Shown: piece by piece, positions 17,519 through 33,148 of the stretch
Layout: the number at the start of each line of letters is the position of its first letter
How positions within the stretch are numbered: the stretch's first letter is position 1
Assembly: GCA_016204945.1 (NCBI GenBank)
Contig: JACQJQ010000097.1
Span: 1 to 46,517 of the forward strand
Reading direction: 5' to 3'
DNA: 46,517 nt
DNA from: Elusimicrobiota bacterium
GTDB taxonomy: Bacteria; Elusimicrobiota; Elusimicrobia; UBA1565; UBA9628
The notes under the pieces: model-generated
The model's database searches: none
What the model saw: the letters and a program-made list of their open reading frames with translations, nothing else
What the model was told of the DNA's origin: nothing
Position numbers and translations under genes: made by a program

Positions 17519-19060
17519 ATGGCCGGCTGGCATTTTTACTTCCTGGGAAAGCTGCTGCTGCACGTTGTCGGCCGCCTGCAATTGAACGCGCTCGCCGATG
17601 CGCTGCTGTTGTGCTTCGTCGTATTCCCCTTGCCGTCCATGCCGGAGTCTCGCGCCCGGCGCTGGCGGCGCGGCCGGGCCGCCGCCGCCGGCGTCGCGGC
17701 CGCCGCGCTGGCCTGGCACGAATCCTGGCTGCCTCCTCCGATGACGGTCGTGCATTTTATCGCCGACGCCGACCTTCGCCCTTCCCTGGGCTATGCCCTG
17801 GACTTCCTCGCGCGTACCGCGGACTGGAGGCTGGCGGCGGGCGCCGCCGCGCTGGGCGGCGCCATTCTCGGGGCTTCGCGCAGCGGCCTATCCCTGACCC
17901 CCCTGCTGATCCTGGGGCTGGCGGCCGTCGCCGTCAACGACGCATCGCGGCGGCCGTTCGGTCCCGCCGGGAGCGCGCTCGAGGGATTCCGAGCGTCCGA
18001 GGCGGCGCGGATCGTCCGCCTGCCGTCCGTCGCCGCCGAGCCCGACTTCGACGTCATCATCGTGCACGTCTGCTCGTTGTCCTGGGACGATCTGCGCGTC
18101 TCCGGCTTCTCCGGCGACCCGTTTTTGGGCTCCTTCCACGTTCTTTTGACGCGCTTCAACTCGGCCGCAAGCTACAGTAATCCCGCCGCGCTGCGCCTCC
18201 TGCGCGCGCCCTGCGGCCAGGGTCCGCACGACGCCCTCTACGGGCCGGCCGCTCCGGACTGCTACCTTCTGGACGTCTTGCGGAGGAGGGGCTTCGTCAG
18301 CTGGGCGGCCGCCAACCACGACGGCGCCTACGCGCGCATGGGCGAGGAGCTGCGCGCCGGAGCTCATGCTGATGCCCCGCTGCCCCTTGACGGCTTGCCG
18401 GCGCCCAAACTGAACTTCAACGCGGCGCCCGTCTATGACGACGGGGCCGTGCTGGACCGGTGGTGGCAGGTTCGGCAGCGTTCGGGCGCCAAGCGCGCCG
18501 TCCTCTACTACAACACGGTCAGCCTCCATCAAGGCGTCCATCGCCCCGGACAGGCCGACGCTTGGCGCCAGGACCGCATGCGCGCTTATCGCGATTCGGC
18601 CGGCGCCCTGTTCGGCGACCTGCGCCGTTTTTTCGCCGCGATCGAGAGCTCGCGCCGTCGCGCCGTGATCTTCTTCGTTGCCGAGCACGGCGCGGCGCTC
18701 GAAGGTTCCTCGATACAGGTCCCCGACCTGCGCGACATTCCTTTGCCGGCTCTGACGCTGGTCCCCAGCGCCGTCATGTTCTTGGGGCCGGGCGCCCCGC
18801 CCGCCGCGCGCGCTCTCTGGCCCCGGCCGGCCAGCTACTTGGCGCTCACCGAACTGTTGGGCCGGCTGCTGGAGCGCTCCCCGTTCGGTCGAAGCGCCCT
18901 GCCCGTCGACGCCTACCTTCGCGGCTTGCCCGAGACCACGTTCCTCGCGGAGAATGAGAACGCCTTGGTGCTGGAGGACCGCGGACGCTATCTTATGCGG
19001 AGCAACCGGGGGGGCTGGAAGGAATTGCCTTCCGACGCCGCCCGCGATGCGACGCCATGA
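17519..19060 (+). CDS. bcsG: Cellulose biosynthesis protein BcsG (phosphoethanolamine transferase)
   Basis: Collinear with E. coli BcsG as I recall it: GWHFYFLGK, IIVHVCSLSWDD, FNSAASYSNPAALRLLRAPCGQ, DCYLLD, APVYDDGAVLDRW, YYNTVSLHQG, AEHGAALEGSSIQVPDLRDIP. Confidence 0.85.
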   Translation: MAGWHFYFLGKLLLHVVGRLQLNALADALLLCFVVFPLPSMPESRARRWRRGRAAAAGVAAAALAWHESWLPPPMTVVHFIADADLRPSLGYALDFLARTADWRLAAGAAALGGAILGASRSGLSLTPLLILGLAAVAVNDASRRPFGPAGSALEGFRASEAARIVRLPSVAAEPDFDVIIVHVCSLSWDDLRVSGFSGDPFLGSFHVLLTRFNSAASYSNPAALRLLRAPCGQGPHDALYGPAAPDCYLLDVLRRRGFVSWAAANHDGAYARMGEELRAGAHADAPLPLDGLPAPKLNFNAAPVYDDGAVLDRWWQVRQRSGAKRAVLYYNTVSLHQGVHRPGQADAWRQDRMRAYRDSAGALFGDLRRFFAAIESSRRRAVIFFVAEHGAALEGSSIQVPDLRDIPLPALTLVPSAVMFLGPGAPPAARALWPRPASYLALTELLGRLLERSPFGRSALPVDAYLRGLPETTFLAENENALVLEDRGRYLMRSNRGGWKELPSDAARDATP

Positions 19061-19230: not shown

Positions 19231-19896
19231 TCAGGCGTGGTCCCGCCGCCCCGCCCAGTTGTAGATGAAGAGCCAGTGCAGCAGCGCGCCGACGATGACG
19301 AGGACGTGGAACAGCTCGTGCGCGCCGATGACGCCCGTCAGGATCACGGGCCCCTCCAGGGAGTCGATGAGCGCGCCGGCGACGTAGGAGATGCCGCCGA
19401 GGAAGAGGAGCGAGGATTCCTTCCAGCCGTAGCGCGCCGTGATGTGGGCGTAGGAGACGACGCCGAGCGAGGCCACGCCGATGTAGGCGGAGACGATCGA
19501 CCAGTACGGCAGGCGGGTGAAATACACGTCGATGAGGACGAGGCAGGTGAGCGCCGCGCCCCAGAACAGCGAGATCAGGCCCCAGCGCCAGCGGCCCTTG
19601 AACAGAAGGATGTGCACGGGCGTGGCCGAGCCCGCGATGACGATCCAGATGCCGGCGTAGTCGAGCCGGCGGAAAATGGTCCGCCACGGGCCCGGCGGCA
19701 GGGCGTGGTAGACGCCGCTCATGGAGAACAGGAACAGCAAGGAGGCGCTGAAGATCATGAGGGAGGAACTGCGCAGGGCGTCGCCCCGCCCCTTCCTGTA
19801 CAGGAAGTGGGAGCCGCCCAAGGCGGCGACCGCGGCCAGGATATGGCTCACGCTCGAGACGGGGTCGTTGAGGCCGAAATAGTGCACGAGCCGCAT
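19231..19896 (-). CDS. Hemolysin III / PAQR family channel protein
   Basis: 7-TM protein of 221 aa with the C-terminal motif HELFHVLVIVGALLHW. The ATG shares 1 nt with the upstream stop (TGATG). The track start at 20892 is a shadow extension. Confidence 0.85.
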   Translation of the reverse strand: MRLVHYFGLNDPVSSVSHILAAVAALGGSHFLYRKGRGDALRSSSLMIFSASLLFLFSMSGVYHALPPGPWRTIFRRLDYAGIWIVIAGSATPVHILLFKGRWRWGLISLFWGAALTCLVLIDVYFTRLPYWSIVSAYIGVASLGVVSYAHITARYGWKESSLLFLGGISYVAGALIDSLEGPVILTGVIGAHELFHVLVIVGALLHWLFIYNWAGRRDHA

Positions 19897-20990
19897 CAGA
19901 GCGCTCCCCTCTCGCGGTCGTGGCGCTTTTCCAGACGCTCCCGGAGCGCGCCGCGCAGGACCCTCGCGCCGAAGAGCTTCGAGGCCTCGACGAGAAGCCT
20001 GACGCCGCCCTCCACGTCCGACAGGCGCACCTTCTCGGGCGCCACCGCCCGGGCGCCCCAGCCGTTGTGGTAGTTGACGAGGGGAATCGCCACGCCGCCG
20101 GCCTCGTAGCCGAAGGCGAGATAGGCGGTCGCCTCGCAGGTGCCGCCCGTCAGGCGCAGGCGCTGGACCGCCGTGCCGCGCCCGCGCAGGACCGCGGCCG
20201 CGTCGTCGAGCAAGGCGGTCAGGTTGGGGTCGAAGGCCGTGGCCTTGTCGCCGAGGCGGATCGTGGGGCCGCGGCCGGGCTTGGAGCCCGGCAGCTCGCG
20301 CGAGGACTCGATCGACAGGTACGAGTCGCGCGCGGACAGGATTTCGGAGCGGAGCATGTCGAGGGCCCCGATGAAGCCGACCTCCTCGGCGCGGTTGAGC
20401 AGGACGGTCAAATTGACCTTCGCGCGGGCCTTCGCCAGCCGCCGCATCGCCTCGAGGCTGATCGCGCAGCCGAGCAAGTCGTCCACGGAGCGCGAGAGGA
20501 GCCAGCCCCTCGAGACCTCGCACGCGGGCAAGGCCAGCACCGCGAAATCGAGCTTGGCGCCCGCCTTCGGCGCTTCGGTCCATCGGATGGTCCACGGTCC
20601 GCCGTCTTTTTTCGGCCGCGGGCCGAGCACGCCGCGCGCGAGGGGGCGGTTGTCCTTGGGCGCGCGGGCGAACGCCTCGACGCGGGCGCCCGCCAGCAGG
20701 TGCGGGGGCAGGCCGCCGCGCAGGCGGGCCGCGGCGCCGGCGCGCGAGACCTTGAGCAGGTCGAAGGCGGGGTGATCGAGATGGGCCGCCAGGCACAGCG
20801 CCGGGCCGGGGCCCGCGCCGCGGTAGGAGACGATGAAGCCGCCGCGCGCGCGGCGGACCTTGACCCGCGCGCCCAGGTTCGCGCGGATCCATTCGAGGGC
20901 CTTGCCCGACACGGCCGCCTCCCGGAATGGGGCGGTGGGGATGGAGGTCAGGCGCCGGAAGAGGGGGAGAACGCCGGGCTCGGCTTTCAC
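19896..20990 (-). CDS. M42/M20-type metallopeptidase-like protein (FrvX/CelM-like)
   Basis: GTG start. Metal-ligand-like motifs AHLDHP, VDDLLGC, RAEEVGFIGA. The family call is tentative. Confidence 0.55.
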   Translation of the reverse strand: MKAEPGVLPLFRRLTSIPTAPFREAAVSGKALEWIRANLGARVKVRRARGGFIVSYRGAGPGPALCLAAHLDHPAFDLLKVSRAGAAARLRGGLPPHLLAGARVEAFARAPKDNRPLARGVLGPRPKKDGGPWTIRWTEAPKAGAKLDFAVLALPACEVSRGWLLSRSVDDLLGCAISLEAMRRLAKARAKVNLTVLLNRAEEVGFIGALDMLRSEILSARDSYLSIESSRELPGSKPGRGPTIRLGDKATAFDPNLTALLDDAAAVLRGRGTAVQRLRLTGGTCEATAYLAFGYEAGGVAIPLVNYHNGWGARAVAPEKVRLSDVEGGVRLLVEASKLFGARVLRGALRERLEKRHDRERGAL

Positions 20991-20994
20991 CCGG

Positions 20995-22815
20995 CTATTC
21001 TACAATTGCCGGAGCCAGGGAGAGGTGCTCGGCGAGGAACGCCTCGGCCTTGGCGTAGAAATCGAGGCGGTTGGAGGGCTTGGCGAAGCCGTGGCCCTCG
21101 TCGGGATACAGCAGATACGCGACGGGCTTGCCCTTGGCGCGCAGGGCCGCGACGATCTGCTCCGCTTCCGCCTGCTTCACGCGCGGGTCGTGGGCGCCTT
21201 GGGCGATCAAGAGCGGAATATCGATCTTGTCGACATGAAACAGCGGGGAACGGGACTTCAGGAATTCTTCTTCGCGCTCGATGGAGCCGACGCGCAGGTC
21301 GAACACCCGCTTCATCGGCTCCCAGTAGGGAGGGATCGATTTGATCAAGGTGACGAGGTTCGAGGGTCCGACGACGTCGATGGCGCAGCGGTAGACGCCG
21401 GGCGTGAAGGCGGCGCCGGCGAGCGCCGCGTAGCCGCCGTAGGAGCCGCCGTAGATCGCGACGCGCGCGGGATCGGCGATGCCCCGCGCGACCGCCCAGC
21501 GGACGCCGTCGGTGAGATCGTCCTGCATCTTGGCGCCCCACTCGCGGTCGCCGGCGTGCAGGTGGCGCTTGCCGAAGCCGGATGAGCCGCGGTAGTTGAG
21601 CTGGAGCGCGGCGCAGCCGAGGCTCGCGAGCCACTGCGCCTCGGGGTGGAAGCCCCAGCGGTCGCGCACCCACGGGCCCCCATGGACGAGCACGACGAGG
21701 GGGAGTTTCTCGGCCGCGGCGCCGTTCGGCGTCGTGAGGTAGCCGCGCACCGTCAGGCCGTCGCGCGCCGCGTATTGCACCGGGGTCATCGGGGCCAAGG
21801 TATAGGGCGCGAGCCTGGGGCGCGCGGCGAAGAGGGGAGAGGCGGCGCGCTTGAGGCGGTCCCAGCGCAGGAAGGCGGGGGAGCGGTCGGGCCTGTCCAC
21901 CAGGACGTACCAGACGGCGTCCGCGTCGTCGCGGCTGACGATGGAGACGTCGCCGTCGAGGGCGGAGAGCGCCGCGAAATCGGCCTCGAGCTTGGGGTCG
22001 AGGACGCGCCAGGCGCGCCGGTCGAGCTCGAAGGCGGCGGCCTCGACGGCGTGGTCGCGCGGATGGAGCAGGACGGCGCCGAGGTCGGACTCGGGGTGCT
22101 CGGCGATGATTTTCCCGGGCCCGCCCGCGAGCGGGGCCTCGAACAGCGCGGTCGTGTCGCGATCCACGCTCGACTCGATGTAAATATTTTGACCGTCGGG
22201 CGAAAATCCGTGCGCGCCCAACTGGTCGTCGGGGCCGCATGTCAAGAAGTCGCGCCAACCCGCGCCGTCGCGGACGCGCAGAATCGTGCCGCCGTCCGGG
22301 GCCGCCGCCTTGTGCAGGCCGATCTTGAAATCGCGGTCCGGCAGCCAGCCGATCGCGTCGCCGGGGTTCGTCGCCTCGAGCGCGCGCTCGCCGGTTTTGA
22401 GGTTGAGGCGCCAGACGTCGTGCAGCTTGGGGTCGCGGTCGTTGAGCGCGACGAGGATCTCGTCCGGGAAGCCGGGCTCGGTCGCGACGATCTGCGCCTG
22501 CACGCCCGGGTAGGGGGTCAGGTCGCGGGCGACGGAGGTTTCCAGGTCGGCCTGGTAGAGGTGCCAGTTCTCGTCCCCGTTGAGGTCTTGCAAATAAAGA
22601 ATCGAGCGCTCGTCCTCCGCCCACAGGAAGACGCGGATGCCGCGGCCGCGGTCGCGGGTGAGGGGCTTGGCGGGCCCGCCCTCGGGGCCGACCCAGATGT
22701 TGAGGACGCCCTCGTCCGGGGCGAGGTAGGCCCAGAGCTTTCCGTTCGGGGAGATCTTCGGCGAGGCCTTCTCCGGGTTGCCGAAGAGCAGCTCGCGCGG
22801 GACGCGTTCGTTCAT
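20995..22815 (-). CDS. S9 family prolyl oligopeptidase / dipeptidyl aminopeptidase
   Basis: N-terminal beta-propeller region. C-terminal alpha/beta hydrolase with nucleophile GGSYGGY, then QGAHDPRV and DEGHGF. Confidence 0.85.
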   Translation of the reverse strand: MNERVPRELLFGNPEKASPKISPNGKLWAYLAPDEGVLNIWVGPEGGPAKPLTRDRGRGIRVFLWAEDERSILYLQDLNGDENWHLYQADLETSVARDLTPYPGVQAQIVATEPGFPDEILVALNDRDPKLHDVWRLNLKTGERALEATNPGDAIGWLPDRDFKIGLHKAAAPDGGTILRVRDGAGWRDFLTCGPDDQLGAHGFSPDGQNIYIESSVDRDTTALFEAPLAGGPGKIIAEHPESDLGAVLLHPRDHAVEAAAFELDRRAWRVLDPKLEADFAALSALDGDVSIVSRDDADAVWYVLVDRPDRSPAFLRWDRLKRAASPLFAARPRLAPYTLAPMTPVQYAARDGLTVRGYLTTPNGAAAEKLPLVVLVHGGPWVRDRWGFHPEAQWLASLGCAALQLNYRGSSGFGKRHLHAGDREWGAKMQDDLTDGVRWAVARGIADPARVAIYGGSYGGYAALAGAAFTPGVYRCAIDVVGPSNLVTLIKSIPPYWEPMKRVFDLRVGSIEREEEFLKSRSPLFHVDKIDIPLLIAQGAHDPRVKQAEAEQIVAALRAKGKPVAYLLYPDEGHGFAKPSNRLDFYAKAEAFLAEHLSLAPAIVE

Positions 22816-22818
22816 GGG

Positions 22819-23859
22819 CTAAAAGCGGTATGCCGTCGAAACCTGCAGGCGGCGCACGAAGGTGCCGCCGGAACGGTCCTCGTATTCGCCGTCGAGCTTC
22901 AGCTCCAAACTGTCGAAAGGCTTCATGCCCAGGCCCAGGTGATACACCGAGGCGGTGAAGGAGTTGAGCGAGCCCGAGCCCGCCTCGAAGGGCTCCTCAT
23001 AGCGGCCGAACGAGGGGCTGAACCGGAAGGTCTCTCCCCGGGCGTGCAGGTTCGAGGAGAGCAGGTAGCCCCAGCGCAGCAGCGCGGCGCCGCCTCGGAA
23101 CTGGGTGGTCGTGGCGCTCAGGCGCGCGCCGAGCTCGGCGTAGGGCCGCGGCCAGAAGTAGAGGGCGGCGGACTGCGTGTAGACGTGGGTGGGAGCGTAC
23201 TCGGAGACGCGCGCCGATCCTTCGGCGTGCAGGCCGGGTATCAGGGAGCGTCCCCAGGATCCCTCCCAGTTCCAGCGCGGCAGCACGGCCGCGCGAGGCG
23301 CCACGGACAGGCGCATGTAGCCTCCATGGGTCGGCCCCCTCCAGGCGGCTCCCAAGGACTGGGACTGGTCCGTGTTGTGAAAGCGGCGCAGCCTCTCGGC
23401 GCCCGCCAGGAAGGACCAGCCGCGGCGGACGGGGACGACGGCGTCCATGCGCCAGGAGTATCCCGGGCCCATGCGGTTGTACCGCTCGCTGCCGTAGGCC
23501 AACTCCACCTTGGGAGGGGCGACGGGCGAGCGGAGAAGCTCCGCGTTCTCCTCGCGCGGTCGCGACCACGAGAGCACGTCGGCCAGCCCCGATGCCGCGT
23601 CCCCGTGATCCGGGCGGGCGGCCAGGATCCTGCGGTACAGCGCCTCGGACTCGGGGTAGCGCTTGCTCCAGGAGTAGAGCTTGGCCAGGCGCGCGGCGGC
23701 GTCGAGATTCCCGGGATCGGAGGAGACGAGCGGCTCCAGCAGGCCGATCGCCTTGGTCCAATCGCCGGCCTTCTCCGCCTCGATCGCGCTCTCGAGGGCC
23801 GGCTGGGCCCGCGCTTGGAGGGCCGTTCCCGCGAGCAGCAGGACCAGGAGCAGCCTCAT
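22819..23859 (-). CDS. Outer-membrane protein with an N-terminal TPR region and a YaiO-like beta-barrel
   Basis: ATG 23859 overlaps the GT2 stop (ATGA). Signal peptide MRLLLVLLLAGTALQARA. TPR-like helices, then Gly/aromatic strands ending ...STAYRF. Confidence 0.65.
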   Translation of the reverse strand: MRLLLVLLLAGTALQARAQPALESAIEAEKAGDWTKAIGLLEPLVSSDPGNLDAAARLAKLYSWSKRYPESEALYRRILAARPDHGDAASGLADVLSWSRPREENAELLRSPVAPPKVELAYGSERYNRMGPGYSWRMDAVVPVRRGWSFLAGAERLRRFHNTDQSQSLGAAWRGPTHGGYMRLSVAPRAAVLPRWNWEGSWGRSLIPGLHAEGSARVSEYAPTHVYTQSAALYFWPRPYAELGARLSATTTQFRGGAALLRWGYLLSSNLHARGETFRFSPSFGRYEEPFEAGSGSLNSFTASVYHLGLGMKPFDSLELKLDGEYEDRSGGTFVRRLQVSTAYRF

Positions 23860-25244
23860 GCTTTCGCCATGCCCCGGCGCTCCATGTCTCCCCAATTCTT
23901 GGAGCCGCGCGCGAGGTCCCACAGGGCCCGGGTGCGGATGAAGGCCAGCGCTTGGCGGTAGCCGAAATTCTCCAGGATGCCGGTGGCGATCAGGCGGCCG
24001 AGGTCGAGCAGCTTCGGGTATCTCTCCATGGACACCTCCTCGATGAGAATGGCGAGCAAGGACAGCAGGATGCCGATGAGGATCGCCAGGGAAAAGAAAA
24101 TGCCGAACGACTCCCAGTTGATCGTTCCCGTGAGAGCCCCGGCCAGGAACACGGCGTAGCCGAAGGCCTCGACCAAGGGGCTCAAGGCCTCGACGAAGAT
24201 GAAGTAGGGCATGGCGACCAGCCCGATCCAGCCGTGGCGGGGGTTGAAGAGCATGCCGATATGCGCCGCGAGGCTTTCGCTGAGGCCCCTCTGCCAGCGG
24301 TTGCGCTGGCGCGACAAGACGCGCCAGCTCTCCGGCACCTCGGTCCAGCAGACCGGATCCGGCATGAAGTGGAAGCGATAGCGCTGCTTCTTCTTCGATA
24401 AGAGCTGATGCAGGCGCACCACCAGCTCCATGTCCTCTCCGACCGTGTCGGTGCGGTAGCCGCCGGCTTCCAGCACCGCCTCTTTCTTGAAGATGCCGAA
24501 GGCGCCGCTGATGATGAGAAGGGCGTTCATCTTGCTCCAGCCCAGGCGGCCGGAGAGGAACGCGCGCAGATACTCCACGATCTGGAACCTGACCAGCCAG
24601 CGCTTGGAGAGCGAGGCGTCGGAGATCTCGCCTTGGCGGACGCGGCAGCCGTTGACCGCCCGCACGATGCCCCCGGTCGCCGCCGTCTCCACGTAGGCCT
24701 CCATGAACGGGTGGATGACGCGCAGCAGGGCCTCGTTTTCCAGGATGGAATCGGCGTCGAGCGAGCAGATCAGGGGGTAGGTGCTGAAGTTGATCCCCGC
24801 GTTGAGCGCGTCGGCCTTGCCGCCGTTCTCCTTGTCGATGACGACGAGGTTGGCGACCTCCGCGGAGCGGTAGATTCCGCGCACGTCCTTGCTGGGGAGC
24901 ATCTTGTGGTAGATCCGCTTGGTCTTGCGCAGCTTGAAGCGCTCGGTGAGCGCGGCCATCGTCTTGTCCTTGGAGCCGTCGTTGATGACGATGATCTCGA
25001 ACTCGGGGTAGGACAGCTTGCGCAGGGACAGGACGCTGTCGACGACTCCTTTCTCCTCGTTGTAGGCGGGTAGGAGCACCGAGACGGGCGGGGTGATGCG
25101 CGCCTTGAGGATCTCCTGGGGGGTGGCGAAGCGCGCGCGCAGCTGGTGCCGGATGATCGCCCAGAAGGAGACGGCGAACATGATCAGATAAACGACGCTG
25201 ACCCCGAGAAAATACAGGATGATCGAAGAGCTAAGAATTTTCAA
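23856..25244 (-). CDS. Processive family-2 glycosyltransferase (PgaC/IcaA/NfrB-like exopolysaccharide synthase)
   Basis: VSVLLPAYNEE, VINDGSKD, SLDADS, VGEDMEL, RQRNRWQRG, plus N- and C-terminal TM helices. TTG start, overlapping the HEAT gene by 14 nt. Confidence 0.85.
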   Translation of the reverse strand: MKILSSSIILYFLGVSVVYLIMFAVSFWAIIRHQLRARFATPQEILKARITPPVSVLLPAYNEEKGVVDSVLSLRKLSYPEFEIIVINDGSKDKTMAALTERFKLRKTKRIYHKMLPSKDVRGIYRSAEVANLVVIDKENGGKADALNAGINFSTYPLICSLDADSILENEALLRVIHPFMEAYVETAATGGIVRAVNGCRVRQGEISDASLSKRWLVRFQIVEYLRAFLSGRLGWSKMNALLIISGAFGIFKKEAVLEAGGYRTDTVGEDMELVVRLHQLLSKKKQRYRFHFMPDPVCWTEVPESWRVLSRQRNRWQRGLSESLAAHIGMLFNPRHGWIGLVAMPYFIFVEALSPLVEAFGYAVFLAGALTGTINWESFGIFFSLAILIGILLSLLAILIEEVSMERYPKLLDLGRLIATGILENFGYRQALAFIRTRALWDLARGSKNWGDMERRGMAKA

Positions 25245-26331
25245 GTTCGTCCAGCCATTGCGCGGCCATGTCCCGCGCGAATCGGTCCGCGGAGCCCTTT
25301 TGCGCCCGGCGCAGGGCCGCGCGTCCGGGCGCGCCCAGCGCCGCCAGCGCCTCGCCGGAATTGCGGCGCACCCACCACTGCCGGTCCTCCAGGCCGCGGC
25401 AGAGGACCGGGATGGCGCCGGAGGCTCCGACTCGCCCCAGCGACTTGGCCGCCTGGGCCCGGAGCTCCCAGACGCCGTCGTCCGCGCATGCGGCCAAGGT
25501 CGCCTCGGCGCGAGGGTCGGCGAAGCCGCCCAAGGCCTTGACGGCGGCGATCCGCACCCCCACCGGCTGGGGGGGCTTGGCCATGCCCAGCACCGTCTCG
25601 AAGGAGCGCGGGTCCCTGAGCTCGCCCAGAAGATGCACGACCAGGAGGCGGACCGCGGCGTCGGGGTGCCCGCAGACGGCCAGAAGCGGCTCCACCGCCT
25701 TCTCGCCGAGCTCGAAGACCGTGGAGGAAAGCCGCATCCCGGCCAGGCGCGAATAGCCCACCAAAGCGGTGATGATCGGCTCGACGACGTCCGCGTCGCC
25801 GATCCGCCCGAGCGCCCAGGAGCCGAGCAGGCGCACCTCCAGCACGCCGTCGCGCAGGGCCTCGAGCAGGCGGCCCTTGGCGGGGCGGCAGCGCATCTGC
25901 CCCAGGCAGCGGGCGGCCTCGGCGCGGACCCACCAGAACGGGCTGCGCAGGCGCCTTAAATCGCCGTCCATGAATCCCAGCTTTTCGTAGGCTTCGGCCA
26001 GCCGCGCGTGCGTCTCTCCCTCGGCCCCGAAGCTCCGCCGCACCAGGAGGTACCGCGCCGCCTCCGGGGCCCGCCGCGCCTGCGACGCCAGGGGCTCCAG
26101 GCGGCGGGTCGGGCCGGAGAGATGCTCCTCCAATAGCGGCGCCAGGACCGCGGTCCAATAGGCTTCCCGGCGGCGGCTGAGTATGCGCCCGGCCTTCATG
26201 AGCAGCAAGGCGACGATCAGCCCCGCGACCAGGAGCGCGAGGGCCTGGGTCGAGGCCCGCATCATTAGAAAGAGCGTCTCTTGGCTGAATCTCACGCGAT
26301 CTTTTGGGATTGTATGATTTCTCGCGTCCAT
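25231..26331 (-). CDS. Membrane-anchored HEAT-repeat protein
   Basis: One N-terminal TM helix, then repeated HEAT/PBS-lyase-like units: VRLLGSWALGRIGD, AVRLLVVHLLGELRD, VRIAAVKALGGFAD, ELRAQAAKSLGRVG, WVRRNSGEALAALG. The start is uncertain. Confidence 0.7.
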   Translation of the reverse strand: MDARNHTIPKDRVRFSQETLFLMMRASTQALALLVAGLIVALLLMKAGRILSRRREAYWTAVLAPLLEEHLSGPTRRLEPLASQARRAPEAARYLLVRRSFGAEGETHARLAEAYEKLGFMDGDLRRLRSPFWWVRAEAARCLGQMRCRPAKGRLLEALRDGVLEVRLLGSWALGRIGDADVVEPIITALVGYSRLAGMRLSSTVFELGEKAVEPLLAVCGHPDAAVRLLVVHLLGELRDPRSFETVLGMAKPPQPVGVRIAAVKALGGFADPRAEATLAACADDGVWELRAQAAKSLGRVGASGAIPVLCRGLEDRQWWVRRNSGEALAALGAPGRAALRRAQKGSADRFARDMAAQWLDELENS

Positions 26332-26561: not shown

Positions 26562-26819
26562 TTAGCTGAGGTGCTTGCTGACGAGCTTCGTCATCTCGAA
26601 CATGTTGACGGTGGCCTTGCCGGCGAACACGGCCTTGAGCGTCGCGTCGGCGTTGATGTTGCGGCGGTTCTTCTTGTCCTGCAGGTTGTGCTTCTTGATG
26701 TACTGCCAGAGCTTCTTGACGACCTCGGTGCGGGGGAGCGGCTTGCTGCCGACGATCTCCGCGAGCTTGTCGCTCGGGGTGAGGGGCTTCATGAACGCCG
26801 AATTCGCCTTCTTCGCCAT
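26562..26819 (-). CDS. Stand-alone SWIB/MDM2 domain protein
   Basis: 85 aa: PSDKLAEIVGSKPLPRTEVVKKLWQYIKKHNLQDKKNRRNINADATLKAVFG...MFEMTKLVSKHL is the canonical SWIB fold signature. GGAG lies 9 nt before the ATG. Confidence 0.85.
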   Translation of the reverse strand: MAKKANSAFMKPLTPSDKLAEIVGSKPLPRTEVVKKLWQYIKKHNLQDKKNRRNINADATLKAVFAGKATVNMFEMTKLVSKHLS

Positions 26820-26900: not shown

Positions 26901-27374
26901 TCAAGGATTCTCCGTCGAGGCCTCGACGAGGCGGATGGCGTCGCGGCCGGACTCGCGAACCTCGTCGGGGACGTGGGGCAGTCCCAATTCCTCGTGGGTA
27001 TGCCAGCGGATGTCGTCGCTTTCATCCGGGCGATGGGCGTGGGCGCCCGCCTTGGCGCGCAGGTAGTAGATGAAGTCGATGTGGTGGTTGTGCCCGGGGA
27101 TTTCCTCGATCTGCACCCGCTGGGGCTCGTGCAGGGACTCGACGCGGCCGCCGCGCAGGACGGGCGCTCGCGGGGGCGAGATGAACTCGGCCTCGAGGCC
27201 GGTCTCCTCGCGCACCTCGCGCAGGACGCCCTCGTCCGTGGTCTCTCCCTCCTCGATGTGTCCGCCCGGGGGCAGCCACATCCCGAGCTTTTTGTGCTTG
27301 AGGAGGAGGGTCCGGCCGTCCCGGACCAGGTAGCCGGTGGCGACGAAGCAGCAGCGCCGCTTCGCCGCGCTCAA
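26901..27374 (-). CDS. NUDIX hydrolase
   Basis: Nudix box GGHIEEGETTDEGVLREVREETGL. The TTG start overlaps the upstream stop (TTGA). Confidence 0.9.
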   Translation of the reverse strand: MSAAKRRCCFVATGYLVRDGRTLLLKHKKLGMWLPPGGHIEEGETTDEGVLREVREETGLEAEFISPPRAPVLRGGRVESLHEPQRVQIEEIPGHNHHIDFIYYLRAKAGAHAHRPDESDDIRWHTHEELGLPHVPDEVRESGRDAIRLVEASTENP

Positions 27375-27829
27375 GGCGCCTGGTGGGAGGTGTCGAACGT
27401 GCGGCGCGCGGCGATGCGCTTCATTTCGGCGGCGGCGGCCGGATTCTCCCGAAGGACGAACTTGAAGTCGTCTGCGACCAAGGTGAACAGCGAGGTCGGC
27501 TCGGCGCAGACGACGCCGGCGTTGCGCGGCTCGTCGGAGATCAGCGCGGTCTCTCCCAGGAAGTCGCCGGCCCTCAAGGTCGCGACCTTCTTCGAGAGCA
27601 CGAGCCAGCGCCGCAGGCGGATCTCGACGCTGCCCTGGTGGACGATGTAGAACGCGTCGCCCTTCTGGCCCTGCGAGAAGACGGTTTCGCCCTTGTCATA
27701 GGAGTAGAGCATGATCGAGGGCAGCACGCGGTCGAGCTGGCCGACGGTGAGCGGGGTGAAGAACTCGACCTTGCGCAGCATGTTGGCGAGGAGCCCGAGC
27801 GCGTCCGCGCCGATCTCGATTTTTTTCAT
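27371..27829 (-). CDS. Stand-alone cyclic-nucleotide-binding (CAP-effector type) domain protein, with no output domain
   Basis: 152 aa. Beta-roll with an intact phosphate-binding cassette: GDFLGETALISDEPRNAGVV. No HTH or other domain follows. Confidence 0.85.
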   Translation of the reverse strand: MKKIEIGADALGLLANMLRKVEFFTPLTVGQLDRVLPSIMLYSYDKGETVFSQGQKGDAFYIVHQGSVEIRLRRWLVLSKKVATLRAGDFLGETALISDEPRNAGVVCAEPTSLFTLVADDFKFVLRENPAAAAEMKRIAARRTFDTSHQAP

Positions 27830-27843
27830 GAGACGACTTTACT

Positions 27844-30800
27844 TTATTTCCGGGCGGGTTTCGCGTGCAGCTCGGCTTCGAGCAGGGCGGTGAACGCCTT
27901 CACCGCGGCGTCGAGGTTCTGCTTCGCGGTGGTCCTCGCGCGGCCCTGCCGGAAGGCGCGGGCCCGGCTGACTTCCGCGAGCGGCCTCTCCGCCTGGCCG
28001 GCGAAGATCTCGGCGAGCCGGGAGTCCGCGCCCAGGAAGGCGTCGTTGCGGCCGGGGTGAAGGTAGCCGATGACCTCGTAGAACTCGCTCTCCGTCAGGC
28101 CGCCGGCCTTGGCGAAGCGGGCGATTCGGTCCCGGTACCAATTTTGGTCGTGCGCCTCGAGCAGATCGGCCACCAGCTGGTTTTCCATCCGCCGCAGGAT
28201 GAGCCCGAGCTTGTCCACGGTCTCCGGCGGCAAGGACGAGAAGAACGCGTACTGCGACCCCCCCTCCGCGCCGAAGCGCTCGATGGTGCCGCCCCGGGGA
28301 TCGAAGCCGAGCTCGTAGACCGCCTTCCAGAGCAGCTTGGTCGCCTGCAGGATGTCGTTGGAAGGGCCCGGCGTGACGTCCAGCACCGAGAGGTCGCCGC
28401 GCGGGTCCTTGCTCATGAAGATCCGCTCCATCGCCCGCGAGCCGAGGGCGGAATAAAGCCGCGCGATCACGCTTCGCGCCGTCTGCTCCTGGGCGGCGTA
28501 CTTCACGTAGCCGCCGACTCCCGGCTTAGGGGGGACGGCCGTCGCGTACTCGAAGCGCAGGCCTAGCCGGACGGCGGCGTAGGCATGGCCGAACTCGTGC
28601 ACCGCCGTCTTGATCCGCTCCACGGGCAGGCGGCCCGTCGCGGCCAAGGGCGGGAAGATCAGCGCGATCTCCTTGCGGTAAAGCTCCAGTTTTTTGCGCG
28701 AGGCGCCGCTTCGAGGCGCGAGCGTGGCGATGATCTCGGACTTGCCGGGCTTGAAGTCGAGGATGATGGTCGCGGGCGCCGTGGCCAGGCGCGAGGACTT
28801 GGGGATGCGGGCCAGGGCCTCCTCCAAATGGGAGGCGATGCGGTTCTGCGCGACGACGACGGTGTTGCGCGCCCCTTCCGAGGGGATGACCGTCTCGCCG
28901 AACAGGTAGCGGCGGTAGGCGGGCGTCATCTCGACGGCGAGCCGGCTTTTGTCCGTCAGACGGGTCTTGGCGACCTTGTCGGCCTGAAGCGCGATGAGCT
29001 TCCTGTAGTCGGGAGCGTCGAGCGGATTCATGATGTGCGCGCGCGGCATGAGCCGGCTGACGGTCTCGGGCAGGAACATGCGTCCCAGGACCTGCTTGAG
29101 CGCCGACGGCGTCATGGCCAAGGTCCGCGCCGCCCGCCGGGTGTCCTCGATGCTGGTCAGCCGCGGGTCGGCCTCGAAGCCGAACAGGTCGCCGCGGAAG
29201 TTCATGGTGATGATGTTGTAGGCGTCGCGTATGTCGATGACTTTATCGCGCCCGTAATCGCTTTTCGCCGGGATCGACGCCGTGCCGTCCTGCAGCAGGT
29301 CCTTGATGGCCGCCATGATGGGGCGGTTGACGACCATGCCCTGCTGATCGACCTCGAAGACCTTGTCGAGCTCCTCGAACAAGACGACGAACTTGCCGCC
29401 CTTGGCCTCTTTGCGGGCCACGGCGATGCCTTCGGCCAGGGTCTGTCCGAAATTCGCCAGGGCGTCCTGGGCGTCCGACGAGAAGGCCTGCATGTTGACG
29501 CGGACGGCGGGAAGATCGAGGTGCTTGGCGGCCAGATTGGCCAGCTCCGACTTGCCGATGCCGGGGAAGCCGGCGAACACGAGAAAGGGGGGCTGGCTGG
29601 CGACGGGTCCCGGGCGGTTGAGATAGGCGTTGAGCTCCTTCTCCACGAGCCGGCTGTGCTCCTCTTGTCCTATGAGGGACGCGTTGATCTTCTCGGCCAA
29701 CCCGGCGGCCAATTTCCGGCTCTTGGGGAAGCGGGCGGCGAAGACCTCTTTCTTGGTCGTGCGTTTTTCCTTCTCGGCCTGTTCCGGGAAATCGGGAGGG
29801 GCCGAGGCGATGCCGTCGGGCTGGGCGAAGAGCTTGGCGCTCGCGTCGAACTGCGCGGAGAACGTGAAGGCGGTTCCCGCCGCCGGTTTGCCGGAGCGCG
29901 ATAGCCGGGGAGTGACGGTCACTTCGGCCCGTTCGGTCTCGGGATTGAAATCCAAGGAGATCAGGCGCGGCTGGGCGAGAGACGGATCGCCCTCCCTGGA
30001 CGCCTTGGCGCCGAAATGAATCAACTGCTCGGCGAGAGCGTTGACCTTGGCGATCGTTTCGCGGGCGCCCGACGGAGCGAACACCGCGTTCCGGCGCAAG
30101 AACTCCATGAACGCCTTCGTATAGGAGACCGAGAGCCGCTTCGCGGCGTTGTCTTCCGTCGTCTCCTTTTCGATCGTGGCGTCGAGGGTCAGCTTGACGA
30201 TTTGAGCGTAGTCCGAGGCCGAGAGCGGCTTCATGATGACGGTGTTCGGAGCCAGGCGGCTGACCGTGTTGGCGCGGAACAGGCTGCTGAGCAGCTTGTA
30301 GCGCGCCGCGGAGTCCTTCTGGATCCAGGCGTCGAAGGCCTGGAAGTCGTCGATCGTGAAGTCGTAGTACTTCTTGGAGGTCTTGAGCGCGCTCGCGGAG
30401 AAATCCTCGATCTCCTTCGGACTGAAGTTCATCGTGGTGATGATCATGGCGTTGGAGAATCGGACTTCCGTCGCGTACTCCCCGGAGAGGAAGCCGTCGG
30501 TCAGGATTTGGTTGAGAGCCCCGATGAACGGAGTCGTTTCCTCCCCGGTCGCCGTGATTTCCGGCAGCTTGTCGATTTCATCGATCAGCAGGATGTACGG
30601 CTTATCCTTGTTCCTATCCGCGATTTCTCTGAGATCGTCCGCGTAGTCCGACGCGTTTCCGCCGCCTTTGACGTACTTCTGGACGTCGAGGCGCTCCACC
30701 TTGAATCCCAGCCGGGCGATCGCGTCCAGGATAGCGGTTTTCCCGATCCCGGGCAGGCCGATCAGGTGGGCGGCGATGGGGTCCTTGGTCCGCGAGCCGA

Positions 30801-31365
30801 AGCCCTCGAAATACTGGACGAGCCGGTCCTGCACGATCTTCGTCGCGCGGTCCTGCCCGATGATCCTGCGATCCACGAGCTCCTTGAGGCTGCGCGCCTG
30901 CTTGATGAGAGCTTGGCGTTCGTCCTCCCCGAAGCGCGCGGCCGCGATCTCGCGCTTGCGGTAAGGCGCGGACGTCTCGGCGCGCGCGGCGCCGTTTTCC
31001 GGCGCGCCGCCCTCGAAGGCGGCCGCGGCGGCGTCGGCGGACTTGGATGCGCCGTCGAGCGCGGCCTTGGCCGCGACCGGCTGGTCCTGGGCGGGGGTCG
31101 CCGCGGGAACGAGGCCGGCGGCCGGCGTCAGGGCGATCGGCGCGGCGAGAGGCGTGAGCGCGAGGTTCGCGGGCGCGGGCGTCATCGAAAGGTTCGGAGC
31201 CGGGGACAGCCCGCCCAGCGCGGGGCCCACGGCGGCCGAGACGCCGGTCCCGGAACCGATCGGAGCGACTCGTCCCAGCGTCTGCGACCGCGCTTCGCGC
31301 GCTCCCGGTAAAGCGGCGAGAAAGGCGGCCAATGCCAAGCGCGAGAGGATGCCGTTGAGGGTCAT
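27844..31365 (-). CDS. 1173-aa protein: N-terminal hydrophobic signal/anchor, Ala/Pro-rich leader, two ClpB-D2-like (AAA_2) ATPase modules, and a C-terminal FtsH-type M41 zinc peptidase
   Basis: Module 1: IIGQDRATK..., GLPGIGKT (30736-30759), ILLIDEIDK, MIITTMNFS, SRLAPNTVIMKPL. Module 2: LIGQEEHSR..., GFPGIGKS (29548-29571), VVLFEELDK, NIITMNFRG, SRLMPRAHIMNPL. Peptidase: HEFGH (28585-28599), then GPSNDILQATKLLWKAVYELGF, which parallels FtsH GASNDIERAT. Confidence 0.8.
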   Translation of the reverse strand: MTLNGILSRLALAAFLAALPGAREARSQTLGRVAPIGSGTGVSAAVGPALGGLSPAPNLSMTPAPANLALTPLAAPIALTPAAGLVPAATPAQDQPVAAKAALDGASKSADAAAAAFEGGAPENGAARAETSAPYRKREIAAARFGEDERQALIKQARSLKELVDRRIIGQDRATKIVQDRLVQYFEGFGSRTKDPIAAHLIGLPGIGKTAILDAIARLGFKVERLDVQKYVKGGGNASDYADDLREIADRNKDKPYILLIDEIDKLPEITATGEETTPFIGALNQILTDGFLSGEYATEVRFSNAMIITTMNFSPKEIEDFSASALKTSKKYYDFTIDDFQAFDAWIQKDSAARYKLLSSLFRANTVSRLAPNTVIMKPLSASDYAQIVKLTLDATIEKETTEDNAAKRLSVSYTKAFMEFLRRNAVFAPSGARETIAKVNALAEQLIHFGAKASREGDPSLAQPRLISLDFNPETERAEVTVTPRLSRSGKPAAGTAFTFSAQFDASAKLFAQPDGIASAPPDFPEQAEKEKRTTKKEVFAARFPKSRKLAAGLAEKINASLIGQEEHSRLVEKELNAYLNRPGPVASQPPFLVFAGFPGIGKSELANLAAKHLDLPAVRVNMQAFSSDAQDALANFGQTLAEGIAVARKEAKGGKFVVLFEELDKVFEVDQQGMVVNRPIMAAIKDLLQDGTASIPAKSDYGRDKVIDIRDAYNIITMNFRGDLFGFEADPRLTSIEDTRRAARTLAMTPSALKQVLGRMFLPETVSRLMPRAHIMNPLDAPDYRKLIALQADKVAKTRLTDKSRLAVEMTPAYRRYLFGETVIPSEGARNTVVVAQNRIASHLEEALARIPKSSRLATAPATIILDFKPGKSEIIATLAPRSGASRKKLELYRKEIALIFPPLAATGRLPVERIKTAVHEFGHAYAAVRLGLRFEYATAVPPKPGVGGYVKYAAQEQTARSVIARLYSALGSRAMERIFMSKDPRGDLSVLDVTPGPSNDILQATKLLWKAVYELGFDPRGGTIERFGAEGGSQYAFFSSLPPETVDKLGLILRRMENQLVADLLEAHDQNWYRDRIARFAKAGGLTESEFYEVIGYLHPGRNDAFLGADSRLAEIFAGQAERPLAEVSRARAFRQGRARTTAKQNLDAAVKAFTALLEAELHAKPARK

Positions 31366-31369
31366 CGTT

Positions 31370-33148
31370 TCAGTACCAATCCTCGATTTCCGTGGATGTG
31401 CCGCGCCAAAGCTTCCTTTCGGCGGCGCTCAGGAAGCGCTTGTGGACCACGATCTCGAAGACGTTCTGGTCGAACCACTCGCGGTAGAGATGGTAGACGC
31501 CCTTGTTGCCGGCCTGCTCGCCCCAGGAGTTCTCCACCTTGAACTTGACGACGGGCTTCCGGGGGTCCGGCTGGTCGAGGCCGGTGAGGACCATGGCGTG
31601 ATTGACTCCGATCCGGCCGAAGTAGGCGGCCTGCTTGCGCGTCAGGGACGGCGTCGCCTCGTCCGGCGTGAACTCATAGAGCGGCGCGCGGTCGAAGACG
31701 TCCGGGTGCATGATGCCGGTTTTGTGGTCGATGTCCCGGCCGGCGTCGGCCGCGAACCAGACCGGCTGGCCGCCCCTGATCGCCCGGGCGGCCAAGGCGG
31801 CGAGGCGCTCCGAGCGCACGTTGAGGAAGCGGAGGTCGAAGCCGGGTTGCCCGGGCGAGGATTTGCCGATGGCGGAGTTCCTCACCTCGTAGACCTTATC
31901 CGTCTTTTTGCCGGGGTAGCTCGAGACCGAGAGATAGTCGTTCGGGTTGAACTTCACGAAGTCGCGGGCGAACTCGCGCGGAGTGTAGGTCTTGAGGCGC
32001 GCTTGCGTGCTCTGGACGCGGCCGGACGTCCGCGTCCGGCCCGCGCGCCGATGCTCGAAGCGCGACGGAGGCGCGCCGAGGTGCGTGACGAGGATCTTCC
32101 AGACGCGCGTCATGCCTCGCTCCTGGATGTCCCGGGCGAGGCTCGCCTCGCGGCCGGCCTTGTACTGCTTGGCGTTGGCCAGCATCTCCGCGCCGGTGGC
32201 GGCCAGGCTGTCCTGGAGCTCCGCGAGCATCGCCTCGGTCGCTCCGGAGCTGATGGTCTCGCCCATGGCGCTCTTGGGGATCAGGCCGTATTTGGAGACG
32301 AGGAAGGCGAAGTACTCGTACCAGCCTCCGTCCCCGAGATTGGGGGTGACGGCCATGCGGCGCCGGTCGGCGGGAAAATCTTTCGGCGACGAGCGCCGAT
32401 AGACCTTTCGGGCGACCTCCTCGAGGTGCCGGTTGGATTTTTCCAGCATGTTGAAGAAATGGAGGTAGTTTTCCGAGAACTCGAAGTCCTTCGGCGCCGT
32501 CTTGTCGGCCAGCAGCGTGGACCGGATCATGTTGAGGCCGGCGAAAATCCAGCAGCGTCCGGACTGCTGCTGATCGGTGATGGGGCCCATGGGAATCTCG
32601 ACGGTGTAGGCGTCGGCGTGATTCTCGAGAACCCGGCGGTTGATCGCGGCGTTCCGGAATCCCACGCGCTGGACGATGTCCTGCAGGCGCCGGCTCTGGG
32701 CGTCGGCGGACCGGCCGCGGGCGATCATGGCGTCGATCCACGGCAGCGGGATGCCCTCGCCCGGACGCTGCGGGCCGCTTCCATCGAAGGCGGCGTCGGC
32801 GCCGGACTTGGACGCGTCGTCGCTCGACTCGGGGGCGCCGAGGGCCACGGCCTGGAGCGCCGCGCCTTCGAGCGCGGCATGAGCGGCTGCCGGCCTATCC
32901 TCGGAGGAAAGCGCCGTCGGGACGAGGCCGGGGGCGGGCGTCGGAGCGAACAGGAGCGCGGCGTCCGGATTCGCGGGCAAAAGCGCCGAGGCCGGGATCG
33001 GCGCCGCCGAGGCCGCGCCGAGCGGCGCGCCGACCGCGCCCAGGCCCGGAACCGCCGCTCCGATCCTAATCGCGGTCTGCGCGTGAAGCGGGACTCCGGA
33101 AAAAACGGCGAGGAGGGCGCTCAGCAGGGCGCGCGATATGGGTTTCAT
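31370..33148 (-). CDS. C1B-family cysteine peptidase (aminopeptidase C / bleomycin hydrolase-like) with signal peptide and Ala/Pro-rich leader
   Basis: MKPISRALLSALLAVFSGVPLHA signal. Catalytic motifs QQQSGRCWIFAG, VNHAMVLTG, VENSWGEQAGNKGV. Its stop lies 4 nt before the next ATG. Confidence 0.85.
   Translation of the reverse strand: MKPISRALLSALLAVFSGVPLHAQTAIRIGAAVPGLGAVGAPLGAASAAPIPASALLPANPDAALLFAPTPAPGLVPTALSSEDRPAAAHAALEGAALQAVALGAPESSDDASKSGADAAFDGSGPQRPGEGIPLPWIDAMIARGRSADAQSRRLQDIVQRVGFRNAAINRRVLENHADAYTVEIPMGPITDQQQSGRCWIFAGLNMIRSTLLADKTAPKDFEFSENYLHFFNMLEKSNRHLEEVARKVYRRSSPKDFPADRRRMAVTPNLGDGGWYEYFAFLVSKYGLIPKSAMGETISSGATEAMLAELQDSLAATGAEMLANAKQYKAGREASLARDIQERGMTRVWKILVTHLGAPPSRFEHRRAGRTRTSGRVQSTQARLKTYTPREFARDFVKFNPNDYLSVSSYPGKKTDKVYEVRNSAIGKSSPGQPGFDLRFLNVRSERLAALAARAIRGGQPVWFAADAGRDIDHKTGIMHPDVFDRAPLYEFTPDEATPSLTRKQAAYFGRIGVNHAMVLTGLDQPDPRKPVVKFKVENSWGEQAGNKGVYHLYREWFDQNVFEIVVHKRFLSAAERKLWRGTSTEIEDWY

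Follow-up and report, generated by a model that had tools for sequence, protein, structure and literature searches.

Within a 46,517-nucleotide window of an Elusimicrobiota bacterium (the whole stretch of DNA that was analysed: positions 1 to 46,517 of contig JACQJQ010000097.1, assembly GCA_016204945.1), an open reading frame at 27844..31365 on the reverse strand encodes a protein in which two paralogous AAA+ modules of the Clp/Hsp100 D2 type are followed by a C-terminal M41 (FtsH-type) peptidase domain. Judged from its sequence, this protein, hereinafter the query, is a member of an undescribed, rare, conserved family of single-chain AAA+/M41 proteases. We propose that it could function as an autonomous, ATP-dependent zinc metalloprotease that is probably exported from the producing cell, and we would assign to this reading as a whole a probability of roughly 0.55. 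The well-studied AAA+ proteases (ClpXP, ClpAP, HslUV, Lon, FtsH and the proteasome) each combine a single type of motor with a single type of peptidase. The present family can be viewed as a natural experiment in which a duplicated Clp-D2 motor has been joined to an FtsH peptidase, and thus might be informative with respect to the interchange of motors and peptidases as well as to the workings of a ring that lacks aromatic pore loops. A survey of the full-text literature (AAA+, M41, Hsp100, signal peptide, Bdellovibrio, Elusimicrobia, periplasmic or secreted AAA+) did not turn up any account of a protein with this architecture, nor of a bacterial AAA+ protease that is exported.

Domain architecture and family

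The domains and catalytic residues of the query are laid out as follows (positions are those of the window, residues are numbered along the protein, and (-) denotes the reverse strand).

27844..31365 (-): the whole open reading frame, 1173 amino acids, with an ATG start and the stop codon at 27844-27846; signal, leader, AAA+ module 1, AAA+ module 2 and M41-like peptidase
29836..30963 (-): AAA+ module 1, residues 135-510, with the YRKREIAAARFG entry helix, IIGQD, large and small subdomains and a terminal beta subdomain (467-507)
30736..30759 (-): Walker A of module 1, GLPGIGKT, K209 invariant (family alignment)
30568..30594 (-): Walker B of module 1, ILLIDEIDK, with E263, D265 and K266 invariant (family alignment)
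30256..30258 (-): R370, arginine finger of module 1, invariant (family alignment and alignment to ClpB)
30061..30069 (-): GAR 433-435, sensor-2 of module 1, invariant (family alignment, PDB profile)
28669..29754 (-): AAA+ module 2, residues 538-899, a paralogue of module 1 that ends in a beta subdomain (865-899)
29548..29571 (-): Walker A of module 2, GFPGIGKS, K605 invariant (family alignment)
29362..29388 (-): Walker B of module 2, VVLFEELDK, with D667 and K668 invariant and E664 and E665 nearly invariant (family alignment)
29053..29055 (-): R771, arginine finger of module 2, invariant (family alignment)
28867..28875 (-): GAR 831-833, sensor-2 of module 2, G831 and R833 invariant (family alignment)
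27847..28668 (-): M41 (FtsH-type) zinc metallopeptidase domain, residues 900-1173, with a helical C-terminal extension (profile, model, Foldseek)
28585..28599 (-): HEFGH 923-927, the zinc-binding and catalytic motif, invariant (family alignment)
28354..28362 (-): SND 1002-1004, in which the invariant D1004 aligns with the third zinc ligand of FtsH (family alignment, profile)

The original prediction, which was made from the nucleotide sequence without database searches, had claimed a fusion of a Clp-type ATPase with an M41 peptidase, and profile and fold searches bear it out. The positions given there for GLPGIGKT (residues 203-210), GFPGIGKS (599-606) and HEFGH (923-927) map exactly onto the translation, and the other motifs named there are likewise present: LLIDEIDK ends at residue 266 and VLFEELDK at 668, TTMNF and ITMNF contain N313 and N722, VSRLAP..IMKPL and VSRLMP..IMNPL contain R370 and R771, and GPSNDILQATK contains D1004. 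The Pfam scan of the query returned AAA (2.3e-17) and AAA_2 (1.2e-11), twice each, along with an M41 match just below the cut-off, and the full-length AlphaFold model of the monomer has a mean predicted local distance difference test score (pLDDT) of 82.

The assignment of both ATPase modules to the Clp/Hsp100 D2 type, within the HslU/Clp/Lon/RuvB (HCLR) clade and not the classical FtsH clade, is supported by several lines of evidence. The best PDB match in a search with the query sequence was the ClpB D2 module, and a profile of 38 family members again matched ClpB D2 first (1.8e-17), with ClpB, Hsp101, Hsp104, ClpC and ClpA spanning the range from 1.8e-17 to 1e-9, followed by weaker matches to HslU (3e-7), ClpX (2.5e-6) and the AAA module of FtsH (2.7e-6); FtsH was matched best in this search only via its M41 part. 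The best NCBIfam matches (ClpB, ClpA, ClpV and ClpK) all run through the D2 region, and in the Foldseek search with the full-length model, the top 50 structures are all ClpC, ClpA or ClpB, the two-ring Hsp100s aligning over ~780-860 columns (E 4e-18). A beta-hairpin inserted before sensor-1 is a mark of the HCLR clade, and such hairpins are present in the model at residues 292-302 and 695-711, between helix alpha3 and the sensor-1 strand, in a region that aligns with DDGRLTDSHGRTVDF of ClpB. The ClpB_D2-small lid (PF10431) scores 20.8 bits in the query against a cut-off of 21.9 and 27.2 bits in a homologue (P0038), and the helical lid is visible in the query model. Thus, profile and fold searches converge on the clade that had been proposed from the motifs. 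One motif needs to be reinterpreted: SRLxP...IMxPL is indeed present in both modules, but the arginine of SRLxP is the arginine finger that ends the large subdomain, and not part of a small-subdomain motif as had been suggested.

The two modules align with each other (residues 140-492 with 541-885; 362 residues, 28% identity, E 6e-27), and both open with an 'ARF' helix and close with a small beta subdomain, in full agreement with the internal duplication inferred from the motifs alone. In addition to the residues listed above, the sensor-1 asparagines, N313 in module 1 and N722 in module 2, are invariant in the family alignment, and the Walker B glutamate of module 2, E665, is retained in 69 of the 72 full-length members. 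The first acidic Walker B residue of module 2 in the query is Glu instead of Asp, a position that is D or E family-wide in both modules. Strong purifying selection acts on both ATPase sites as well as on the site that binds zinc.

The C-terminal domain is predicted to be a divergent, catalytically intact M41 peptidase. A profile built from the alignment of the last 294 residues of 24 members matched only FtsH and AFG3L2 in the PDB (5e-7), the alignment spanning the HEaGH, 'GRAAE' and 'GAxNDxxxAT' motifs. The AlphaFold model of this domain (pLDDT 87) retrieved exclusively FtsH, AFG3L2, YME1 and FtsHi among the top 50 Foldseek matches, with E-values down to 2e-6, and its target-normalised TM-score to the isolated FtsH protease domain (2di4) is 0.63-0.69. 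E980 is another invariant residue of the M41-like domain in the family alignment. The M41 region that had been recognized from HEFGH and GPSNDILQATK is therefore upheld, with HEFGH and D1004 invariant and with M41 proteases as the only matches of both the profile and the fold search.

An initial homology search identified 44 relatives of equal length and domain order, with 36-69% identity to the query, which, where annotated at all, are labeled 'AAA family ATPase' or 'ClpA'. A HMMER scan of 1.84 billion cluster representatives (50% identity) with the C-terminal profile detected 86 proteins at E<1e-30, the complete ones consisting of ~1000-1265 residues. The domain order first noticed in a single contig hence recurs in ~86 clusters from uncultured Bdellovibrionota and Elusimicrobia. 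A scan in which each prokaryotic species was represented by a single genome yielded 15 loci, all in metagenome-assembled genomes (MAGs) of these two groups, the Bdellovibrionota carriers belonging to Bdellovibrionales, Bacteriovoracia and Oligoflexia. The closest relatives of the query, at 67-69% identity, include one protein annotated as coming from Elusimicrobia.

This distribution also disposes of the possibility that a chimeric assembly, a fused gene call or a decaying pseudogene brought together a Clp and an FtsH gene. The sole irregularity of the locus is a local GC content slightly below that of the flanks (0.64 at 29001-31000), and no support for an artefact was found. In contrast, the reading frame is without interruption and has a GC content at third codon positions (GC3) of 0.90, equal to that of the flanking genes, the catalytic residues are invariant across sequences of 36-69% identity, and independent assemblies from two phyla contain more than 70 full-length proteins with the ~1100-residue architecture; over 40 full-length homologues in independent assemblies, and ~86 clusters, show that the frame is not chimeric. 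An artefact, to which we give a negligible chance, is refuted.

Two features of the relatives merit mention in their own right. Most of the Bdellovibrionota members (P0006-P0042, P0048-P0111) contain a single conserved cysteine in a C-x-x-hydrophobic-hydrophobic tail within the last 5-15 residues, which might form an inter-subunit disulfide or serve as a zinc-capping 'cysteine switch', and have almost no cysteine elsewhere; the query and the relatives closest to it (P0002, P0003 and P0005) do not have this tail cysteine. Furthermore, there are single-module relatives (P0131, P0132, P0134 and P0135, 657-701 amino acids; L018:6001-8106) that consist of the ARF motif, a lone AAA module that is similar to module 2 and has an ADPxxTSIED loop, the beta subdomain and an M41-like domain, and have no signal peptide. 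Among these, P0131 carries EEFGH and P0134 has no HExxH, and P0132 is located among housekeeping genes (PNPase, S15, GltX) on a contig that is an ordinary bacterial housekeeping region; a search with P0132 as the query retrieved P0132 itself plus one weak match only.

Probable export, substrate handling and competing explanations

The N-terminal part of the query precedes the catalytic modules and consists of two segments (the arrow marks the putative cleavage position).

31285..31365 (-): Sec-type signal-peptide-like segment, residues 1-27 (MTLNGILSR / LALAAFLAALPGA / REARS↓Q)
30964..31284 (-): disordered Ala/Pro/Gly-rich leader, residues 28-134, with the 'AAKAALDGA...AAAFEGG' motif (pLDDT ~30)

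A heuristic scan for an N-terminal hydrophobic core across the 72 full-length members was positive in 61, and most of the others are visibly truncated at the N-terminus. A typical member starts with a positively charged n-region followed by a short hydrophobic core and a polar stretch with small residues at -3 and -1, often with D, E or Q next; MKKLILLTLILFTTQTFA↓QDP, MRALAAILAISFCFLQAHA↓EPN and MFVNTLVFILNLLLIPHLLIA↓ADE are textbook-like examples, and many members show AxA↓D/E/Q. In the members generally, the signal is directly followed by the conserved Y(K/R)(K/R)xxIxxARFG motif, with which module 1 begins. The c-region of the query (PGAREARS↓Q) is atypically charged for a signal peptide. 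Inspection of hydrophobicity across the family revealed no transmembrane segment beyond the N-terminal one. The query contains no cysteine in 1173 residues, compared to 0.77% in the other genes of the window (naive binomial p ~1e-4), and the family median is two cysteines per protein. Taken together, the signal-like N-termini, the absence of other transmembrane segments and the scarcity of cysteine indicate that the family is likely to be Sec-exported, and given the signal and the leader, the picture painted by the original prediction probably shifts from an FtsH-like cytoplasmic protease to an exported one. Such a conserved secretion signal would challenge the textbook confinement of bacterial ATP-dependent proteolysis to the cytoplasm.

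With regard to the handling of substrates, three conserved loops are of interest.

30529..30567 (-): hairpin after Walker B of module 1, residues 267-279, LPEITATGEETTP, conserved, at the pore-loop-2 position
29320..29361 (-): hairpin after Walker B of module 2, residues 669-682, VFEVDQQGMVVNRP, with E671, R681 and P682 invariant and G676 nearly so
29155..29184 (-): FGFEADPRLT loop, residues 728-737, just after the sensor-1 N722 of module 2, almost invariant in the family

The family consensus of the two hairpins is DK(V/L)PEIxxGxExTxP in module 1 and DKVFEIDPxGxxVNRP in module 2; relative to ClpB D2, the hairpin is a 9-residue insertion at the position of the ClpX/HslU pore-2 loop. The FGFEADPRLT loop would correspond in position to the IGF/IGL loop through which ClpX and ClpA dock onto ClpP, and by analogy may contact the fused M41 ring.

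The scenario that we favor, that of an exported ATP-dependent protease, could then run as follows. As in Hsp100s and FtsH, the protein would assemble into a nucleotide-dependent hexamer, with two stacked ATPase rings on top of a ring of M41 domains, and the binding and hydrolysis of ATP would control the entry of substrates into the peptidase chamber. Because the canonical aromatic pore-1 loops are missing, we propose non-canonical handling of substrates, either through the conserved hairpins at the pore-2 position or in a mode in which ATP mainly licenses assembly or activity. The signal peptide, followed in the lineage of the query by the Ala/Pro-rich leader, would direct the mature enzyme to act outside the cytoplasm of the producer, where a prey or host cell would be the most plausible site at which ATP is available; delivery to prey or host is suggested by the fact that most of the carriers belong to the predatory phylum Bdellovibrionota. 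If the signal is functional, the family might thus represent the delivery of ATP-dependent protein destruction to prey or host cells, and would provide a concrete, testable entry point to the way of life of uncultured Elusimicrobia and Bdellovibrionota.

Several observations weigh against this scenario. The aromatic-hydrophobic-Gly pore-1 loop (GYVG in Clp, FVG in FtsH) is absent from both modules in the alignment and in the model: the loop between strand beta2 and the next helix comprises 6 residues in module 1 (KGGGNA, variable and rich in G, N and D in the family) and 4 in module 2 (SSDA, family consensus SSDS). All characterised threading AAA+ unfoldases employ such an aromatic pore-1 loop, and the unfoldase and the self-compartmentalising design named in the original prediction are to be regarded as hypothetical. 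By the textbook view, the periplasm and the medium contain no ATP, so that an exported ATPase would have no obvious source of energy. Signal-peptide status was derived from hydrophobic-core heuristics rather than from a trained predictor, the charges on either side of the hydrophobic segment (+1.45 on the N-side, +1.0 on the C-side) do not settle the matter, and the conserved basic Y(K/R)(K/R) cluster is located close behind this segment. A low cysteine content is also common in cytoplasmic Hsp100s. On the side of the peptidase, the single-sequence Pfam M41 (PF01434) score, 29.0 bits over profile positions 7-116 of 191, falls just under the cut-off of 29.9, which is why the confirmation of this domain is drawn from the profile and fold searches. 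Finally, the formation of hexamers, the ATPase activity and the proteolysis are themselves predictions from sequence and models. As for the pore loops, Y241, which HMMER aligned to the pore tyrosine of ClpB, was considered as a vestigial pore loop and rejected given that this position is F or L in the family and lies inside a helix.

Two alternative explanations take up these difficulties in different ways. The query could be a cytoplasmic protease tethered to the membrane through an uncleaved N-out/C-in anchor, with the leader as a flexible tether keeping the hexamer at the inner membrane face, that is, an analogue of FtsH engaged in the quality control of membrane proteins at the expense of cytoplasmic ATP. 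Under this explanation, the ATP paradox disappears, and it can draw on the placement of the basic Y(K/R)(K/R)xxIxxARFG cluster within 5-15 residues of the hydrophobic segment and the small difference in flanking charge, on the hydrophobic runs of 20-28 residues in some members, and on the presence of a further transmembrane-like segment (210-233) in one of the leader-bearing Hsp100s that are encoded in the related contig L017 discussed below. Nevertheless, in many members the core consists of 13-17 residues, too short for a transmembrane helix, and behind it come a polar c-region, small amino acids at positions -3 and -1 and an acidic +1/+2, a pattern typical of signal peptides that are cleaved; the K/R residues of the n-regions favor an N-in orientation; and the PepC-like neighbour of the query shares an 'AxA↓Q' type of site with other, clearly secretory proteins of L017. 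On balance, we regard tethering as quite unlikely.

The other alternative retains the possibility of export and reassigns the role of ATP: the two rings would serve as a switch that licenses assembly, and not as a threading unfoldase, so that M41 would cleave unfolded or peptide substrates and an exported enzyme would remain inactive before arriving in a compartment rich in ATP, for example a prey or host cell. The combination of invariant nucleotide-binding and hydrolysis residues with the loss of the pore-1 aromatics in both rings is what one would anticipate of such a device, and hexamerisation of Hsp100s is known to depend on nucleotide, as established for ClpA, ClpB and ClpC. Yet the hairpins at the pore-2 position are highly conserved (E269, E275 and T277 in module 1; E671, G676, R681 and P682 in module 2), which suggests a function in the axial channel, and two full, hydrolysis-competent rings appear costly for a mere switch. 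We consider an exclusive switch function doubtful.

Relation to known AAA+ proteins

Compared to the known systems, the query would, by analogy, work most like FtsH or Lon, namely as a single-chain AAA+ protease. It shares with FtsH, AFG3L2 and YME1 the union of an AAA+ ATPase and a C-terminal M41 peptidase in one chain, the fold of the peptidase, and HExxH together with the Asp ligand in 'xND(I/L)xxAT'; if exported, it would also resemble the i-AAA proteases, the catalytic part of which faces away from the cytoplasm or matrix. The differences are no less substantial. In place of the single classical-clade module of FtsH, the query has two Clp-D2-type modules with pre-sensor-1 hairpins and GAR sensor-2 motifs; instead of two transmembrane helices and a periplasmic domain, it has a single signal-like segment; it lacks the FVG pore loop; and its M41 domain is divergent (~20% identity) and carries an extra helical C-terminal extension. 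The NCBIfam FtsH_fam model scores 26.8 bits in the query against a cut-off of 600. Lon is likewise a single-chain AAA+ protease, with an ATPase of the same HCLR clade as Clp D2, but combines one AAA+ module with a Ser-Lys S16 peptidase, whereas the query combines two modules with a zinc-dependent M41 domain.

With ClpB/Hsp104, ClpA and ClpC, the query has in common two stacked modules per chain, the VVGQ entry, D2-like motifs and a probable D2-small-like lid. Unlike in these proteins, both of its modules are D2-like; D1, Clp_N and the middle domain are absent (neither Clp_N nor AAA_lid_9 was matched in the Pfam scan of the query), as is GYVG; the hairpin after Walker B contains a 9-residue insertion, as in ClpX and HslU; and the peptidase is fused, a metallopeptidase and not ClpP, in a protein that starts with a putative signal peptide. 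By its predicted domain content, the query is not an orthologue of ClpA, ClpB or ClpC.

To our knowledge, torsins are the one well-known group of Clp-D2-related AAA+ proteins with a signal sequence and without aromatic pore loops; the query likewise lacks such loops and has a putative signal sequence. However, torsins lack an arginine finger, which they borrow from LAP1/LULL1, and have a non-canonical sensor-2, whereas the arginine finger and GAR are invariant in the present family, and the query has two modules plus a peptidase. The Pfam Torsin model yields a partial match (residues 554-616) at 24.9 bits, below the cut-off of 27, and torsins are absent among the 60 PDB profile matches listed (down to E ~6e-6). 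Membership in the torsin group is ruled out by the arginine fingers and the GAR motifs.

Clp-D2-type AAA_2 and M41 also meet in one chain in three other proteins, P0046 (1211 amino acids), P0144 (1538) and P0148 (975). In these, a Clp-like module is merely added upstream of a complete classical FtsH AAA (Pfam AAA 1e-41 to 1e-49, M41 1e-25 to 1e-29), unlike in the query; P0046, the one inspected at the level of sequence, differs further in the absence of a signal peptide and the presence of 20 cysteines.

Genomic neighbourhood and leader-bearing genes

The immediate neighbours of the query gene are the following.

31370..33148 (-): PepC/bleomycin-hydrolase-like C1 peptidase, upstream in the same operon with a 4-bp gap (Pfam Peptidase_C1_2 1.2e-82)
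27371..27829 (-): cyclic-nucleotide (cNMP)-binding protein, downstream with a 14-bp gap, forming with the NUDIX gene a pair syntenic with L017
26901-27374: NUDIX gene, overlapping the cNMP-binding gene by 4 bp, syntenic with L017

A scan for promoters and terminators between the genes detected nothing informative and is consistent with a single operon. The signal and leader of the PepC-like protein are homologous to those of the query (39% identity over 131 residues), and it has no cysteine other than the catalytic one; enzymes of the PepC type usually occur as hexamers in the cytoplasm. In L017 (L017:1-10770; ENA ERZ13692956 NODE_1447), a contig of a close relative, a nearly identical pair of cNMP-binding and NUDIX genes is present, and upstream of this pair, the position syntenic to 27371-33148 of the window is occupied by three consecutive genes, encoding LonA and two ClpB-like Hsp100s of 1058 and 1353 amino acids. 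Both Hsp100s have full leaders like that of the query, the 1353-residue one with an extra transmembrane-like segment at 210-233, after the leader. The LonA gene lies at the contig end, where only the end motif of its leader is visible, and is otherwise complete; all three proteins are free of cysteine. A leader of the same kind is found on P0045 as well as on the 1353-residue Hsp100 of L017. These comparisons imply that, in the lineage of the query, ATP-dependent proteases and chaperones that are normally cytoplasmic share one putative N-terminal targeting module. A search with the leader alone gave no match at E <= 0.01, not even to the query itself, presumably due to composition filtering. 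A twin-arginine (Tat) signal was also considered: 'SRRATAM' is present in P0045, but on inspection the query, the PepC-like protein and the 1353-residue protein have no twin arginine, and this option was discarded.

It is tempting to speculate that these proteins, namely LonA, the two Hsp100s, the Clp-M41 fusion and the PepC-like peptidase, make up a Sec-exported, cysteine-free proteolysis kit that would use the ATP of prey or host to act on folded proteins and, owing to an assembly that depends on ATP, would be inert in the ATP-free periplasm. This extension of the export scenario is tentative. Should it prove true, the kit would stand as the first AAA+ protease system that works outside the cytoplasm in bacteria, and it would mark a predatory or parasitic lifestyle in uncultured Elusimicrobia and Bdellovibrionota.

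In tblastn searches with 12 neighbours from the window against 15 homologous loci, no partner was found to be kept beside the gene, and the neighbourhoods of P0025 and P0002 differ. At the P0025 locus (L013, CAILEP010000031.1), in a MAG of Bdellovibrionales, a canonical ClpB (866 amino acids, with Clp_N) is encoded directly upstream on the same strand, an arrangement seen, among the loci inspected, in that one Bdellovibrionales contig only. Membership in a defence system was considered and dismissed: PADLOC produced generic ClpB-like matches only (DolB, 3.8e-14; IetA), which reflect the AAA fold.

Farther from the query gene, an M42-like aminopeptidase and an enzyme of the S9 prolyl-oligopeptidase family, neither with a signal peptide, are encoded at 19896-22815 (-), and the region can be called peptidase-rich given that these genes are also nearby. 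Just downstream of the NUDIX gene, at 26562-26819 (-), there is a gene for a stand-alone SWIB/MDM2-domain protein of 85 amino acids (Pfam 3.6e-31), a domain that is uncommon in bacteria. A BcsG-like cellulose-modification protein (1.7e-117), a family-2 glycosyltransferase and an adjacent HEAT-repeat protein are encoded at 17519-19060 (+) and 23856-26331 (-), and their predicted functions suggest an exopolysaccharide locus beside the protease operon.

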